DNA of 64,000 nt from an uncultured Lachnospiraceae bacterium (GTDB taxonomy: Bacteria; Bacillota; Clostridia; Lachnospirales; Lachnospiraceae), in contig CAUWLL010000007.1 of NCBI GenBank assembly GCA_963559605.1, positions 19,966-83,965 of the forward strand, read 5' to 3'. Below the pieces are notes generated by a model. It made no database searches. It was given only the letters and a program-made list of their open reading frames with translations, and was not told the DNA's origin. The position numbers were made by a program, and so were the translations under genes. Below, one piece after another: positions 23,504 through 28,781 of the stretch. How positions within the stretch are numbered: position 1 is the first letter of the stretch; every line of letters begins with the position of its first letter.

Positions 23504-24028
23504 TTACCTCGTCTCCAAAAACTCCTGCTCCTTCAAAGCCTGCTTGTCGTCGGGATACTTTTCTATATATTTCTCCAGACGCTCTCTTGCTTCCTCCCAA
23601 TTCTTTGCTCCCTCATAAGAAACAATGAGATTGTACTCAATCTCCTGGAGCAGCTCCTTACTGTTCTTCTCATCTTCCAGCGCTTCTTTATAATACTTGA
23701 CAGCCTTCTTATAATTCCCAAGCTCCAGTTCACAGCTTCCCAGCAGATTGCAAAGTGTACCGTTCTTCTTACTGCCTTCTTTAACTGCATTTGCAAGCGC
23801 ATCTTTTGCGCCCTCGTAATCTTGCTGCTCCCATAGCGCGATTCCAAGCCCGCGATATGCGTCCGCTGTATGCTTCTCTTTTTTTACAGACTGCTTAAAA
23901 CTTGCCTCTGCCTCTTTATACTTCCCAGCTTCTAACTGCTCTATACCCTCTTCATACGGATTGCTTCCGCAACCGGATAAGAAAAGTGCCGCCAGAAGAA
24001 GCACCGGTATCATCCGAAATTTTCTCAT
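23504..24028 (-). CDS. TPR-repeat lipoprotein
   Basis: Lipobox LSGC followed by several TPR-like helical repeats. Confidence 0.8.
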   Translation of the reverse strand: MRKFRMIPVLLLAALFLSGCGSNPYEEGIEQLEAGKYKEAEASFKQSVKKEKHTADAYRGLGIALWEQQDYEGAKDALANAVKEGSKKNGTLCNLLGSCELELGNYKKAVKYYKEALEDEKNSKELLQEIEYNLIVSYEGAKNWEEARERLEKYIEKYPDDKQALKEQEFLETR

Positions 24029-24036
24029 ATTTCCTC

Positions 24037-25899
24037 CTAAGCTTTAAATTTCACTACCCATACAGCATTTAACACTGCCGCAAATACTACGCCCACCTCG
24101 GCGATGATCGCTTCCCACATTCCAAAATATCCGATCACTGCCAATACCAGGATCATAACTTTTATTACCATGGCAAATGTAATGTTCTGACTCACCACAC
24201 GAAGCGTCTCTTTGGCAATCCGAATGGCGTCTACAATTTTAGGAAGTTCGTCTTCCATTAAAACAATATCCGCCGCTTCGATAGCCGCCGCCGAACCTAA
24301 CGCACCCATGGCTATACCGACGTCTGCCCTCGCCAGTATGGGCGCGTCATTGACGCCGTCACCGACACAGACTAACCGTTCCATGTCATCTTGTACGACC
24401 AGAAAATCCTCCAGCTGTTCCAGTTTATCTGCCGGCATCAGTTCCGTGTACGCATAATCCATGTCCAGCTCCCGAGCCACATCCATTCCCGCAGCTTCCG
24501 TATCTCCCGTAAGCATGACCAGTACGCCATGACATTTTTCTTTCAAGTATTTGAGCGTCCACTTGGCATCTTCCTTGATGACATCAGAAATCAAAATATA
24601 TCCCGCATATTGATTTGCCACGGCAACATATACTACGGTTCCGGCAGTATAGACCTCTTCTGCCTCAACACCATATCGGCTCATCATACGATAATTGCCG
24701 ACATAAACCTTTTTCCCCCCATACATGGCGCTGATCCCATATCCCGGAATTTCTTTCACACGGTATACCGCAGACTTATCGATCGCTCCTTCATAGACCT
24801 GTAAAAGCGTCTGTGCAATGGGATGATTCGAATAGCTTTCCGCATGTGCGGCAATTTTAAGCAGTTCTTTCTCTTCCATCCCCACCGGATGCACTTCCTG
24901 CACCGTAAATACGCCTTCCGTCAAAGTACCCGTCTTATCAAACACAAAAGTGTCCGCTTTTGATAAATCTTCCAGATAATTGGCTCCCTTAATAACAATC
25001 CCCTGTCTCGCCGCAGAAGCAAGACCGCCAAGAAACGCGATCGGAATAGACATAACAAGCCCACTTGGACAAGCCACGATTAAAAAAATGAGTCCGCGAT
25101 AAATCCACGTATCCCAATTTCCATAGGAAAAAGAAAGTGGAGGATAAATCATGACAAGAAATGCAAAGACAAACATTACCGGCGTGTAAACTCTGGAAAA
25201 TTTGGACACAAAGGTTTCACTGTCTGATTTCTTATTCTGAGCCTCCTCTACCATTTCCATAATCTTAGAAACCGTAGAATCACTGTACTCCTTCGTTACT
25301 TTCGCTACCAGCACACCACTTAAGTTAATACATCCACTGTAAATCCGATCGCCTGCAACAGCCTTTCTCGGAACGGGCTCACCGGTCACTGCCTTTGTAT
25401 CGATCATAGAAGAGCCGCCCCTGACGACCGCATCCACCGGAATACGCTCCCCCGGCTTAATGACGATCACATCATTCCGTCTCAATTCTGCCGGGTCTAC
25501 CTGTACCTCTTTGTCATTTATCTTTCTTGTGGCATACGGCGGACGGATGTCGACCATTTCCTCAATCGAACGTTTTGCACTATCCGTAGCATAAGACTCA
25601 AAGATTATTCCCAGCTCAAACAGAAGCATAACAAGTACGCCCTCAATATATCTTCCTATACCAAACGCACCTACAGTAGCCAGCGTCATCAGCGTATATT
25701 CTGTCAAAAATCTCTTCTGCATAAATCGTTCGCAAAGATTTTTAAACACATCATAACCGATGATCAAGTAAGCAATCAAAAACCATATGAACTTTATCCG
25801 GTCGTCCAGTGTATTATATGTAGTAATTATAATAGCACACACATATAGCAATACGCCGGCTCCATAAATAATACTTCTCTTTTTCAATTGTGCTGTCAT
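24037..25899 (-). CDS. P1B-type heavy-metal ATPase, variant metal site, no N-terminal metal-binding domain
   Basis: TGE, CPS, DKTGTLT, SNHP, GDGVNDAP. Confidence 0.9.
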   Translation of the reverse strand: MTAQLKKRSIIYGAGVLLYVCAIIITTYNTLDDRIKFIWFLIAYLIIGYDVFKNLCERFMQKRFLTEYTLMTLATVGAFGIGRYIEGVLVMLLFELGIIFESYATDSAKRSIEEMVDIRPPYATRKINDKEVQVDPAELRRNDVIVIKPGERIPVDAVVRGGSSMIDTKAVTGEPVPRKAVAGDRIYSGCINLSGVLVAKVTKEYSDSTVSKIMEMVEEAQNKKSDSETFVSKFSRVYTPVMFVFAFLVMIYPPLSFSYGNWDTWIYRGLIFLIVACPSGLVMSIPIAFLGGLASAARQGIVIKGANYLEDLSKADTFVFDKTGTLTEGVFTVQEVHPVGMEEKELLKIAAHAESYSNHPIAQTLLQVYEGAIDKSAVYRVKEIPGYGISAMYGGKKVYVGNYRMMSRYGVEAEEVYTAGTVVYVAVANQYAGYILISDVIKEDAKWTLKYLKEKCHGVLVMLTGDTEAAGMDVARELDMDYAYTELMPADKLEQLEDFLVVQDDMERLVCVGDGVNDAPILARADVGIAMGALGSAAAIEAADIVLMEDELPKIVDAIRIAKETLRVVSQNITFAMVIKVMILVLAVIGYFGMWEAIIAEVGVVFAAVLNAVWVVKFKA

Positions 25900-25931: not shown

Positions 25932-26291
25932 TTATTCCGTTATATGCTCCATTCCCTGACTGATGATGTTCTGAATATGCCCATCCGCCAGAGAATAATA
26001 TACCGTTTTGCCTTCTCGTCTGTTTTTTACAAGCTTCATCTGTTTGAGTATACGTAATTGATGCGAAATTGCCGACTGCGTCATACCGAGCACTTCTGCA
26101 AGATCGCAGACACACATCTCTGCCTTTAAAAGCACACACAACAGCTTGATTCTTGTGGCGTCTCCGAAAACCTTATAAAAGTCCGCCAGTTCTTTGATCA
26201 GCTCTTCCTCCGGTATTTCTATTAAAACTTCTTTCACCTTCCCATCATGAACATATACTTCCTCACAGCATTCCACTTCTAACTTTTTCAT
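25932..26291 (-). CDS. ArsR/SmtB-family metal-responsive repressor (CadC-like)
   Basis: ELCVCD-like EMCVCDL, QSAISHQLRIL, DGHI alpha5 site, N-terminal CCEEVYVH. Confidence 0.92.
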   Translation of the reverse strand: MKKLEVECCEEVYVHDGKVKEVLIEIPEEELIKELADFYKVFGDATRIKLLCVLLKAEMCVCDLAEVLGMTQSAISHQLRILKQMKLVKNRREGKTVYYSLADGHIQNIISQGMEHITE

Positions 26292-26337
26292 ACATCCTTC
26301 CTTTCGACTGTACTTATATCAGTCTATCTATTAATTA

Positions 26338-26372
26338 TGCCAAATGGCGAAAAGTATTTCAACCATTTGGCA
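26338..26372. other. Stem-loop between the first ATPase and the repressor gene
   Basis: TGCCAAATGG/CCATTTGGCA perfect 10-bp arms; no good U tract. Confidence 0.5.
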
Positions 26373-26382
26373 CAAAAATCAA

Positions 26383-28695
26383 CTATTTTTTACAACTATT
26401 CAGCCACAGCATCCGTATTGCGTTCAATACACAGAGCATTGCCACCCCTGTATCGGCAAAAACCGCCATCCACATATTGGCATACCCGAAAAATCCTAAA
26501 AGCATCACCAGGAATTTCACGGCGAGCGCAAATACTACGTTCTGCATGGCAATCCTTCCCGTCGTCCGGGCAATCTTCACAGATTCCGAAATGGCATCTA
26601 CGGAAGAGGTCATAAACACTACGTCCGCCGCTTCAATGGCAGCGTCTGCTCCACTTCCCATGGCTGCCCCCACATCTGCTCCTGCAAGTACCGGAGCATC
26701 GTTGATGCCGTCTCCCACAAACATAACAGCGCCGTATCTTTTACGAATGTCCTGCAAATGTGTTAATTTATCCTGAGGAAGCAGTCCTGCATGCACTTCG
26801 TCAATCCCTATCGCCTGCGCCACTTTCTTGGCGCTGTTTTTTTCGTCTCCGGTAAGCATTGCCGTCATCAGACCGGCTTTCTTCATGCGCGCTATAGATT
26901 CTTCTGCCTCCGGCTTGATCACATCGGATACGACCATATATCCTTCTAAAACGCCGTCCACCGCTACCAGTACTTCCGAACCGTAATCACTGTTTTGATA
27001 ACTGCCGACATCTACACCGTACAGATTCATCAATCCTCTGCTTCCGCAAAGTACAACCCCTTCTGAAAATACTGCGCGGATTCCTTTTCCGGAAATCTCT
27101 TCCACTTCTTTCGGTCTCATAAGCGTAAGTTCTTTTTCTCTTGCCAGACCGACAATACTTGTTCCGATCGGGTGCGTAGAAACAAGTTCACAATCTGCCG
27201 CTATGGTAAGCAATTGTTTCTCTGCCAGTTTGCCAAGCGTCACTACTTTACGGACCACAAAATTCCCCTTGGTAAGCGTCCCTGTCTTATCCATAACAAC
27301 TGCCTTGACGTCTTTAAGCGCCTCAATCGCCACACCGCCTTTGAACAAAATCCCCTTTTTGGAACCGGATCCGATGCCGGAGAAAAATGCCAGAGGAACA
27401 CTGAGTACCAGAGCACACGGACAACTGATCACAAGAAATGTGATCGCCGTATAGATCCAATGGTTCCAATCTCCCGTGATCAAAGACGGAATGATCGCCG
27501 TTATCAACGCCAGAACTACTACGATCGGCGTATATACTCCGGCAAATCTCGTGATAAACCGGTCGATCTTCGGTTTGCTTGCCGCCGCATTTTCTACCGA
27601 ATCCAGAATACGTGTTACCATAGATTCACTTAACGGCTTTTGAACTTCCATTTTAAGCATTCCCTGCTCATTTACACAGCCGGACAAAACTTCCGTGCCC
27701 GGATACACATTGACCGGGACCGGCTCTCCCGTCACAGCAGAAGTATCCACCTGGCTCTGTCCTTCTACAATTTTTCCGTCCAATGGAATGCGATCCCCCG
27801 GACGTATTAACAAAATGTCCGAAACCTTCGCCTCCTGCGCCGGAATTACCTTTACCTCTCCGTCTGCAAAAAGATTCACAACTTCCGGTCTCAGATCCAC
27901 AGCATCCATAATCTGAGAACGGCTGCGGCTGACTGCAATTTCCTCAAACAGCTCTCCCACACGGTAAAATAACATCACACCCACCGCCTCTGCGAAATCT
28001 CCGATAACAAAAGCTGCAAGGGTGGCAACGCTCATAAGGAAATTTTCGTCAAGCACCTTCCCTTTCCGCAGGTTCTTCACTGCCGTCCACAAAATTCTCA
28101 AGCCTAAAACCACATAAGCCGCCACAAACAATACGGCTGATACAGGAAAATCAAAGACTATATCCTCTGTGAATATTCCCGCCGCAAATAAAACCGCTCC
28201 GGCAATAACGGAAAAAATATCTTTTTTATTTTCCTCGAAAACACTTTTCTTCTCTTTCTTTTGACGTTCAGACTCTTCCCTTGGGACAACCACCACCTCT
28301 TCCTCAATGGAAGAACAAATCTCCTGTAGTTTGGGAAGCATATTTTCTGAATGATCAGATGCCACCACCAGCTGTTTCGTGGCATAGGTGAGAATCGCTT
28401 TCTCTACCTCCGGCAAAGCATTGATCTGACGCTCCATCTTGGCGGCACAATTGGCACAACCTAAGTTTTCCAGAATATACACTTTCTTTTCCATTCCCTG
28501 CCAAAACTCTGTCTGCGCCAATTCTTCATGAGACTCACAAGCATGTGCACAGCCGTCGTGACATTCGTGCGCGTGGTCGTGATGTTCATGGTGATGATGC
28601 TCATGGTGATGATGCTCATGATGCTCGTGACTATGTCCGCAGCCACAGCTTTCCCCATGCTGATGTATTTTATTAATCGCTTTATCTTTCATCAT
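26383..28695 (-). CDS. cadA: P1B-2 Zn/Cd/Pb-exporting ATPase with His-rich N-terminus and HMA domain
   Basis: His tract, LGCANCA, TGE, CPC, DKTGTLT, STHP, GDGINDAP, VK in TM7, ADTG in TM8. Confidence 0.9.
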   Translation of the reverse strand: MMKDKAINKIHQHGESCGCGHSHEHHEHHHHEHHHHEHHDHAHECHDGCAHACESHEELAQTEFWQGMEKKVYILENLGCANCAAKMERQINALPEVEKAILTYATKQLVVASDHSENMLPKLQEICSSIEEEVVVVPREESERQKKEKKSVFEENKKDIFSVIAGAVLFAAGIFTEDIVFDFPVSAVLFVAAYVVLGLRILWTAVKNLRKGKVLDENFLMSVATLAAFVIGDFAEAVGVMLFYRVGELFEEIAVSRSRSQIMDAVDLRPEVVNLFADGEVKVIPAQEAKVSDILLIRPGDRIPLDGKIVEGQSQVDTSAVTGEPVPVNVYPGTEVLSGCVNEQGMLKMEVQKPLSESMVTRILDSVENAAASKPKIDRFITRFAGVYTPIVVVLALITAIIPSLITGDWNHWIYTAITFLVISCPCALVLSVPLAFFSGIGSGSKKGILFKGGVAIEALKDVKAVVMDKTGTLTKGNFVVRKVVTLGKLAEKQLLTIAADCELVSTHPIGTSIVGLAREKELTLMRPKEVEEISGKGIRAVFSEGVVLCGSRGLMNLYGVDVGSYQNSDYGSEVLVAVDGVLEGYMVVSDVIKPEAEESIARMKKAGLMTAMLTGDEKNSAKKVAQAIGIDEVHAGLLPQDKLTHLQDIRKRYGAVMFVGDGINDAPVLAGADVGAAMGSGADAAIEAADVVFMTSSVDAISESVKIARTTGRIAMQNVVFALAVKFLVMLLGFFGYANMWMAVFADTGVAMLCVLNAIRMLWLNSCKK
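28587..28616. repeat. 15-bp tandem repeat (2 exact copies) in the His-rich tract
   Basis: CATGGTGATGATGCT at 28587-28601 and 28602-28616, encoding EHHHH units. Confidence 0.85.
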
Positions 28696-28720: not shown

Positions 28721-28781
28721 ATATATGAACAACTATTCATATGTTCATTTATATAATATTCCCGGAATCCAAAAATGTCAA
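28721..28781 (-). promoter_or_regulatory. SigA promoter with SmtB/CzrA-type operator
   Basis: TTGACA (28781-28776)-N17-TATTAT (28758-28753); ATATATGAACAACTATTCATAT at 28721-28742. Confidence 0.8.

Follow-up and report, generated by a model that had tools for sequence, protein, structure and literature searches.

The window (the whole 64,000-nt stretch analysed here, from an uncultured Lachnospiraceae bacterium) encodes on its minus strand a heavy-metal P-type ATPase that resembles the zinc/cadmium exporters ZntA and CadA and departs from them at the positions that hold the transported metal. Does this departure mark a new kind of pump, a variant of a known one or a pump in decay, and which metal would such a site carry? 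The answer turns on the following features of the gene:

24037..25899, minus strand: target pump gene, 620-aa ATPase of the P1B-2 lineage without a metal-binding domain
25063..25071, minus strand: M4 motif C277-P278-S279 (CPC in canonical pumps), mapped by script on the translation
24097..24099, minus strand: M6 Glu601 in AEVG, at the aligned position of Asp714 in ZntA and of the HEGxT Glu in sCoaT
24160..24186, minus strand: M5 N572-x7-K580, the P1B-2 signature with the built-in counter-ion Lys, invariant in 95 aligned sequences
24925..24939, minus strand: DKTGT phosphorylation motif, residues 321-325, found in every ortholog

CPS at 25063-25071 and the Glu codon at 24097-24099 had been pointed out in a preliminary description of this DNA, and translation with script mapping places both exactly there. 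The motifs listed in it as intact (the TM7 Lys, DKTGT, TGE, HP and GDGxND) were all located in the 620-aa translation, with TGE at residues 172-174, DKTGT at 321-325, HP at 359-360, GDGVNDAP at 513-520 and N572-x7-K580. Two NCBIfam models match the protein, TIGR01512 (Cd/Zn subfamily; 473.5 bits, cut-off 313.5) and TIGR01525 (heavy-metal P1B family; 526.7 bits, above the cut-off), and the closest solved relative by sequence is ZntA (4umv, 8.5e-98), with the P1B-4 pump sCoaT (7QBZ) a weaker match (9e-84). The AlphaFold2 model, built on a 95-sequence alignment (pLDDT 85, pTM 0.74), has helices at residues 3-28, 33-60, 67-80, 84-116, 230-256, 262-276/279-298, 553-589 and 594-617; the eight transmembrane helices of P1B pumps (MA, MB, M1-M6) are present, M4 is unwound at 276-279, and the C-terminus lies 3 residues past M6. 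A fold search with this model returned ZntA (4umw) as the top match, with CopA also among the top matches. The reported absence of a metal-binding domain is borne out: Pfam finds E1-E2_ATPase and Hydrolase only, with no HMA, the protein has just 39 residues ahead of the position that aligns with residue 40, and the model opens with helix MA at residue 3. The absence is nevertheless not the distinctive trait for which it had been taken, since 58 of 145 canonical relatives lack the N-terminal domain as well.

Among the 95 aligned sequences N572, K580, S284 and P278 are invariant, and E67, L70, E86, P286 and N611 are conserved in at least 90%; E86, in M2, is aligned with ZntA E202. When the subclass signatures of P1B-2 and P1B-4 were compared, the target was found to have the catalytic motifs and eight transmembrane helices of class 1B P-type ATPases and, from the P1B-2 list, N(x)7K in M5, the TIGR01512 match and the phylogenetic affinity; CPC in M4 is replaced by CPS, and DxG(x)7N in M6 by E601-V-G603-x7-N611. 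Both P1B-4 motifs, SPC and HEGxT, are absent (the target reads CPS and AEVGV), and the Glu alone aligns. Judged from its sequence, the target is a pump of the P1B-2 (ZntA/CadA) lineage and not a new kind of pump.

The weight of the altered site depends on how constant it is elsewhere. We surveyed the 150 nearest 50%-identity representatives together with one bacterial family, a set in which related sequences are not independent, and distinguished 145 canonical P1B-2 representatives, a clade of 36 Glu-bearing sequences (31 distinct below 97% identity) that includes the target, and 11 Asp-bearing sister orthologs, which occupy the same locus and are 45-54% identical. The residues at and around the metal site were as follows:

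Position 276: canonical, Ser in 142/145; Glu clade, Ala in 35/36; sister orthologs, Ala in 11/11
Position 277: canonical, Cys in 145/145; Glu clade, Cys in 35 and Ser in 1; sister orthologs, Cys in 9, Leu in 1, Ile in 1
Position 279: canonical, Cys in 145/145; Glu clade, Ser in 18, Cys in 14, Thr in 2, Gly in 1, Phe in 1; sister orthologs, Cys in 9, Ser in 1, Val in 1
Position 280: canonical, Ala in 143/145; Glu clade, Gly in 32/36; sister orthologs, Gly in 11/11
Position 601: canonical, Asp in 144/145; Glu clade, Glu in 36/36; sister orthologs, Asp in 11/11
Position 603: canonical, Gly in 145/145; Glu clade, Gly in 28/36; sister orthologs, Gly in 3/11

Residues N572 and K580 do not vary in any of the three groups. 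With CPC in 145/145 and Asp in 144/145 of the canonical sequences, and Glu in 36/36 of the target's clade, a chance pattern is excluded. The preliminary description had staked its case on homologs that conserve CPS together with Glu; the Glu half of this held throughout the clade, and the CPS half failed on the mixture at position 279, where one species of the target's own genus reads CPT.

In the FastTree phylogeny the Glu clade and the sister orthologs form one clade (support 0.994-0.996) on a stem branch of length 0.28, which lies outside all other representatives when the tree is rooted with CopA, a rooting that long-branch attraction may affect. By Fitch parsimony, position 601 requires 1 change and position 277 requires 3; the minimum is 8 for position 279 and 10 for position 603. 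The early-branching members of the Glu clade read CPC, and because of this we place the replacement of Asp by Glu first and the loss of the second Cys later and repeatedly. As read from these sequences, the change from Asp to Glu occurred once within the non-canonical group and was then fixed, and position 279 is no longer constrained in the Glu clade, the second metal-binding Cys having become dispensable. CPS and Glu are thus not the paired change that had been proposed: the Glu is single and fixed, and the step from Cys to Ser is younger and labile.

Several observations on individual sequences belong here. Twenty further full-length family matches (44-48% identity) were considered as members of the clade and rejected, all being canonical SCPCAL/ADVGV pumps at other loci. 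P0244 (615 aa), outside the Lachnospiraceae clade, has replaced Asp by Glu independently (SEVGV) and is otherwise a canonical CPC pump, the sole case among the 145. The most extreme site variants within the Glu clade are found at L009:4001-5860 and L042 (G216:C6:42912-44774); one of the two reads SPG and has no Cys in its M4 motif at all, the other combines CPF with E-G-G in M6, and the catalytic motifs are intact in both. Away from the membrane, residue 537 (about 24289-24291) is a P-domain position occupied by Asp in 90% of the canonical pumps (GSDAAIEAAD) and by Ala in 94% of the Glu clade, and residue 511, which precedes GDG, is Cys in 97% of the Glu clade vs Phe in 84% of the canonical relatives.

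Within the surveyed set the non-canonical clade was met only in some Lachnospiraceae; in a sample of one genome per genus from 400 genera, about 15 have the Glu form and 7 the sister form. Target-type pumps are common in gut metagenomes, where single 90%-identity clusters are seen on 400-900 contigs, and the source databases label proteins of the Glu-clade type as cadmium-translocating or heavy-metal ATPases.

On the minus strand the gene order around the target is hisF, ung, cadA, arsR, the pump, a TPR lipoprotein gene, hflX and a dapF-like gene. The immediate neighbours are:

26383..28695, minus strand: canonical CadA-type pump, 770 aa, upstream of arsR, with a His-rich N-terminus, HMA domain (Pfam HMA match), CPC and ADTG
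25932..26291, minus strand: gene for an ArsR/SmtB-family regulator of 119 aa that carries CVC, DxHx10Hx2E and an N-terminal Cys-Cys; 32 nt separate its stop from the start of the pump gene
23504..24028, minus strand: gene for a TPR lipoprotein, 8 nt away from the pump gene on its downstream side, a neighbour and not a demonstrated member of the system

CadA has CPC and ADTG at the positions that align with CPS and AEVG in the target, as had been described, and the two proteins, with these motifs in register, are 38% identical over 605 residues. The N-terminus of CadA (window 28545-28670) carries a long His/Glu-rich repeat (HEHHHHEHHHHEHH...) ahead of the HMA domain. The genome of origin (2.7 Mb, 96% complete) encodes four P1B pumps: besides CopA, CadA and the target there is one on contig C82 (L020:3-1829, minus strand), a third P1B-2 pump with CPC in the canonical form SCPCAL and without a metal-binding domain, which the contig end cuts before M6.

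We compared 29 pump loci, 16 from named Lachnospiraceae (Dorea, Bariatricus, Faecalicatena and others) and 13 from the one-genome-per-genus sample; these were retrieved via the pump itself, so that the neighbours alone are informative. The same gene order recurs across them, with gaps among the neighbours: cadA is absent from 8/29, including one species of the target's genus, an adjacent arsR is absent from 5/29, hflX was found in 27/29, and the TPR gene follows the pump in 27/29, one of the exceptions ending at the pump and the other having no TPR match. No correlation between residue 279 and the presence of cadA was seen in the pump loci examined. Retrieval via hflX from 29 other Lachnospiraceae genera gave a complementary picture, with hflX immediately preceded by the TPR gene in about 20/29 loci and no pump within the ~1.5 kb examined; in one genus (L099, G006:C37:1652472-1656695) cadA-arsR stands directly upstream of TPR-hflX without the non-canonical pump. 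From these two results we conclude that the stretch from ung to TPR-hflX is a variable metal-efflux slot, that the TPR protein belongs with hflX, and that the target pump is not a tandem copy of cadA. The two pumps, which had been called paralogs, are so in the broad sense; in the close sense they are not, given the 38% identity, their different clades and the occurrence of either one alone at the locus.

The regulator matches NF033788 (102.6 bits), has the HTH_5 domain and the ligand motifs of its family, and these motifs are conserved in 21 orthologs. Its orthologs have an N-terminal Cys-Cys (in the sister group His-Cys ... His-x-His), CVC and an invariant DxHx10Hx2E, a set which we take to be the arrangement of CadC/SmtB-type sensors for Zn/Cd/Pb, with an alpha3N and an alpha5 site. 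The same ligand pattern is found in ArsR proteins beside canonical SCPCAL/ADVGV pumps of other Lachnospiraceae, and therefore the sensor was not altered along with the pump. The putative control regions are:

26334..26372, minus strand: arsR promoter-like TTGAAA-17-CATAAT with an overlapping inverted repeat with 10-11-bp arms (TGCCAAATGG ... CCATTTGGCA; repeat at 26338-26372)
28726..28781, minus strand: promoter-like TTGACA-17-TATTAT of cadA and, after it, the palindrome TGAACA-N10-TGTTCA

The inverted repeat flanks the -35 element of the arsR promoter-like site and overlaps its -10 element. It recurs in conserved form ahead of arsR (or the pump) across genera of the Glu clade (L001-L016, L065-L069), its arms carry matching substitutions (e.g. 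AAATGG/CCATTT to AAACGG/CTGTTT), and it is kept in L002, a locus with neither arsR nor cadA. It may be the operator of an as yet unknown factor or else a nucleic-acid structure. As a marker of a regulon it proved unusable, occurring a single time in the genome of origin. The sister group has a different arrangement, TTGACC-17-TATAAT followed by a TGAAC-N-GTTCA palindrome.

Three known kinds of pump offer a comparison. The best sequence and fold match is ZntA/CadA (ZntA of Shigella sonnei/E. coli, PDB 4UMV/4UMW), with which the target shares TIGR01512, 8 transmembrane helices, N(x)7K in M5, CPx-x4-S-x-P in M4, G(x)7N in M6, an M2 Glu equivalent to E202 and control by the ArsR family; it differs in the replacement of the M6 Asp by Glu, in the unconserved second Cys of CPC, in the flanks of CPx (A..G instead of S..A) and in the Gly of DxG, which is labile within the clade. 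P1B-4 pumps (sCoaT, PDB 7QBZ, and the CzcP/PfeT/CtpD type) have a site of one Cys and one Glu, attributed to the motifs SPC and HEGxT (PMC8880997). The target likewise conserves one Cys in M4 and one Glu in M6, Glu601 aligns with the Glu of HEGxT, and both lack a classical metal-binding domain. However, the Cys comes first in the target motif (CPx) and third in that of P1B-4 (SPC), no His precedes the target's Glu (AEVG vs HEGxT), the target keeps the M5 Lys where the counter-ion of P1B-4 is His657, and the sequence match is weaker than to ZntA. The third comparison is with Lachnospiraceae arsR-cadA pairs of the canonical type (SCPCAL ... ADVGV) whose pump has no metal-binding domain: these pumps have about 620 aa, their ArsR is 53-72% identical to that of the target in 18/20 loci examined, and one such pump is encoded in the genome of origin, on contig C82. 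They differ from the target in sequence (just 44-48% identity), have the canonical site, lie at another genomic location and have no TPR-hflX downstream.

The metal ligands of ZntA are two Cys and one Asp, the latter being paired with Lys693 once the metal has left (PMC8880997, PMC10246665, PMC6305203), and E202 is the proposed release ligand (PMC6305203). In the target this Cys2-Asp site would have changed to one thiolate (Cys277) and a longer carboxylate (Glu601) beside the M5 Asn/Lys pair, and the conserved set comprises Cys277, Glu601, Asn572 and Lys580, with Glu86 in M2 as the counterpart of the release ligand. The pump would move a divalent metal out of the cell at the expense of ATP, probably co-transcribed with and controlled by the ArsR-family sensor encoded just upstream, and most likely Zn(II), possibly Co(II) or Cd(II), would be exported once the sensor is metallated. 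The likeness of this one-Cys/one-Glu set to the P1B-4 site makes a shift in affinity and selectivity probable, with very soft ions bound more weakly. The sequence and model data establish the family, the fold, the intact catalytic motifs, the purifying selection, the conservation of the site, the operon-like gene order and the ligand motifs of the regulator; we infer which metal is carried (from the regulator and the lineage only), which way the affinity has shifted and how the pump is regulated. Given the unchanged thiolate-rich sensor, the most economical reading is that the pump exports ions of the Zn(II) class with a changed affinity or selectivity, and we think it somewhat better than an even bet that the target is an active, ArsR-controlled divalent-metal exporter of the P1B-2 lineage that most likely carries Zn(II) in this altered way. 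The 5/29 pump loci that have no adjacent arsR speak against this reading. The target could possibly serve as the low-affinity, high-capacity partner pump proposed in the preliminary description.

The main rival, a more far-reaching reading which we regard as unlikely though worth serious attention, is that the lineage has switched substrate and forms a P1B subgroup of new function, with a harder Cys/Glu site through which Fe(II), Co(II), Ni(II) or Mn(II) leave the cell in place of Zn/Cd. The Cys2-Asp site, invariant in the 145 relatives and changed in this clade, speaks for it, as do the long stem branch, which sets the group apart from all other representatives, and the two canonical Zn/Cd-type pumps (CadA and the one on contig C82) that the genome already has and that seem to leave little need for a third Zn pump. 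The P1B-4 subclass, whose site has one Cys and one Glu, carries Co/Zn/Cd and accepts a wider range of cargo than any other subclass (PMC8880997). Mutation of the M6 Asp of ZntA abolishes metal binding and activity (PMC10246665), so a Glu at this position may mean a real change of substrate and not a tuning of affinity. On the other side, the adjacent sensor keeps its thiolate-rich N-terminal/CVC and DxHx10Hx2E sites as the regulators of canonical pumps do, Cys277 is kept in 35/36 sequences, and the annotated neighbours include no regulator of the Fur, PerR, MntR or DtxR type. For the same reason nothing points to the Mn, Fe or Ca-like substrates of the preliminary description, the ligand pattern of ArsR being that of the regulators of canonical CPC/Asp pumps. 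The ZntA D714E mutant and CPC-to-Ser/His mutants are reportedly the subject of work by Dutta et al. in 2006 and 2007.

The opposite extreme, neutral drift in an ordinary Zn/Cd exporter in which Glu stands in for Asp and Zn transport needs one Cys only, agrees with the unchanged regulator and with the way position 279 toggles between Cys, Ser, Thr, Gly and Phe among close relatives, even inside one genus. We nevertheless hold it to be improbable: the same positions are constant in 145 far more divergent canonical relatives, from which it follows that the constraint changed at the base of the non-canonical group, the Glu has been fixed with zero reversals (36/36), and the flanking residues shifted in concert (Ser276 to Ala, Ala280 to Gly). 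That the gene is a decaying or non-transporting relic is suggested by the loss of otherwise invariant residues, but is scarcely credible in view of dN/dS values of 0.02-0.08 in seven ortholog pairs, which therefore describe a protein that is maintained and working; no frame-breaking stop was found in any ortholog, and the catalytic motifs are complete in all of them. A further suggestion, that the pump passes metal to the TPR lipoprotein as an extracellular partner that would metallate secreted proteins, with no role in detoxification, draws on the position of the TPR gene after the pump in 27/29 loci. The existence of TPR-hflX pairs without a pump led us to reject this partnership, to which we assign very little likelihood; the TPR protein, moreover, has no Cys/His cluster and is just 35-60% conserved.

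The exporter of altered affinity or selectivity that we favour is thus, as far as sequence comparison can tell, an uncharacterised natural variant of a zinc/cadmium-class pump. The original observation that its transport site departs from the P1B-2 signature was sound; a 2023 paper describes CPC and the Asp as 'fully conserved in P1B-2 ATPases' (PMC10246665), the departure is heritable, and the gene is under strong purifying selection. Our literature search found no paper on a pump with CPS and Glu or with CPx and Glu; the one mention of CPS that it returned is in a list of M4 variants (PMC9045314). We raise tentatively, without expecting it to prove correct, the idea that the Glu clade and the Asp-bearing sister orthologs with their degenerate CPC form an unrecognised P1B subgroup of abundant gut Lachnospiraceae, with a one-thiolate/one-glutamate, P1B-4-convergent site on a P1B-2 scaffold and a distinct selectivity. 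If this is true, the selectivity might be for e.g. Fe(II)/Co(II)/Ni(II), or for Zn with Cd/Pb excluded, and the group would be a natural experiment on the rewiring of P1B selectivity.

The M4, M5 and M6 motifs are the basis on which a P1B subclass and its predicted metal are read, and in published work on P1B-2 both CPC and the M6 Asp count as fully conserved and essential. The automatic label 'cadmium-translocating ATPase' on genes of the Glu clade should accordingly be taken with caution, as an unverified one. A bearing of these pumps on the metal homeostasis of gut commensals is plausible and secondary; above all, the pumps of the Glu clade are ready-made natural mutants with which the roles of individual ligands in the affinity and selectivity of Zn-type pumps may be tested.
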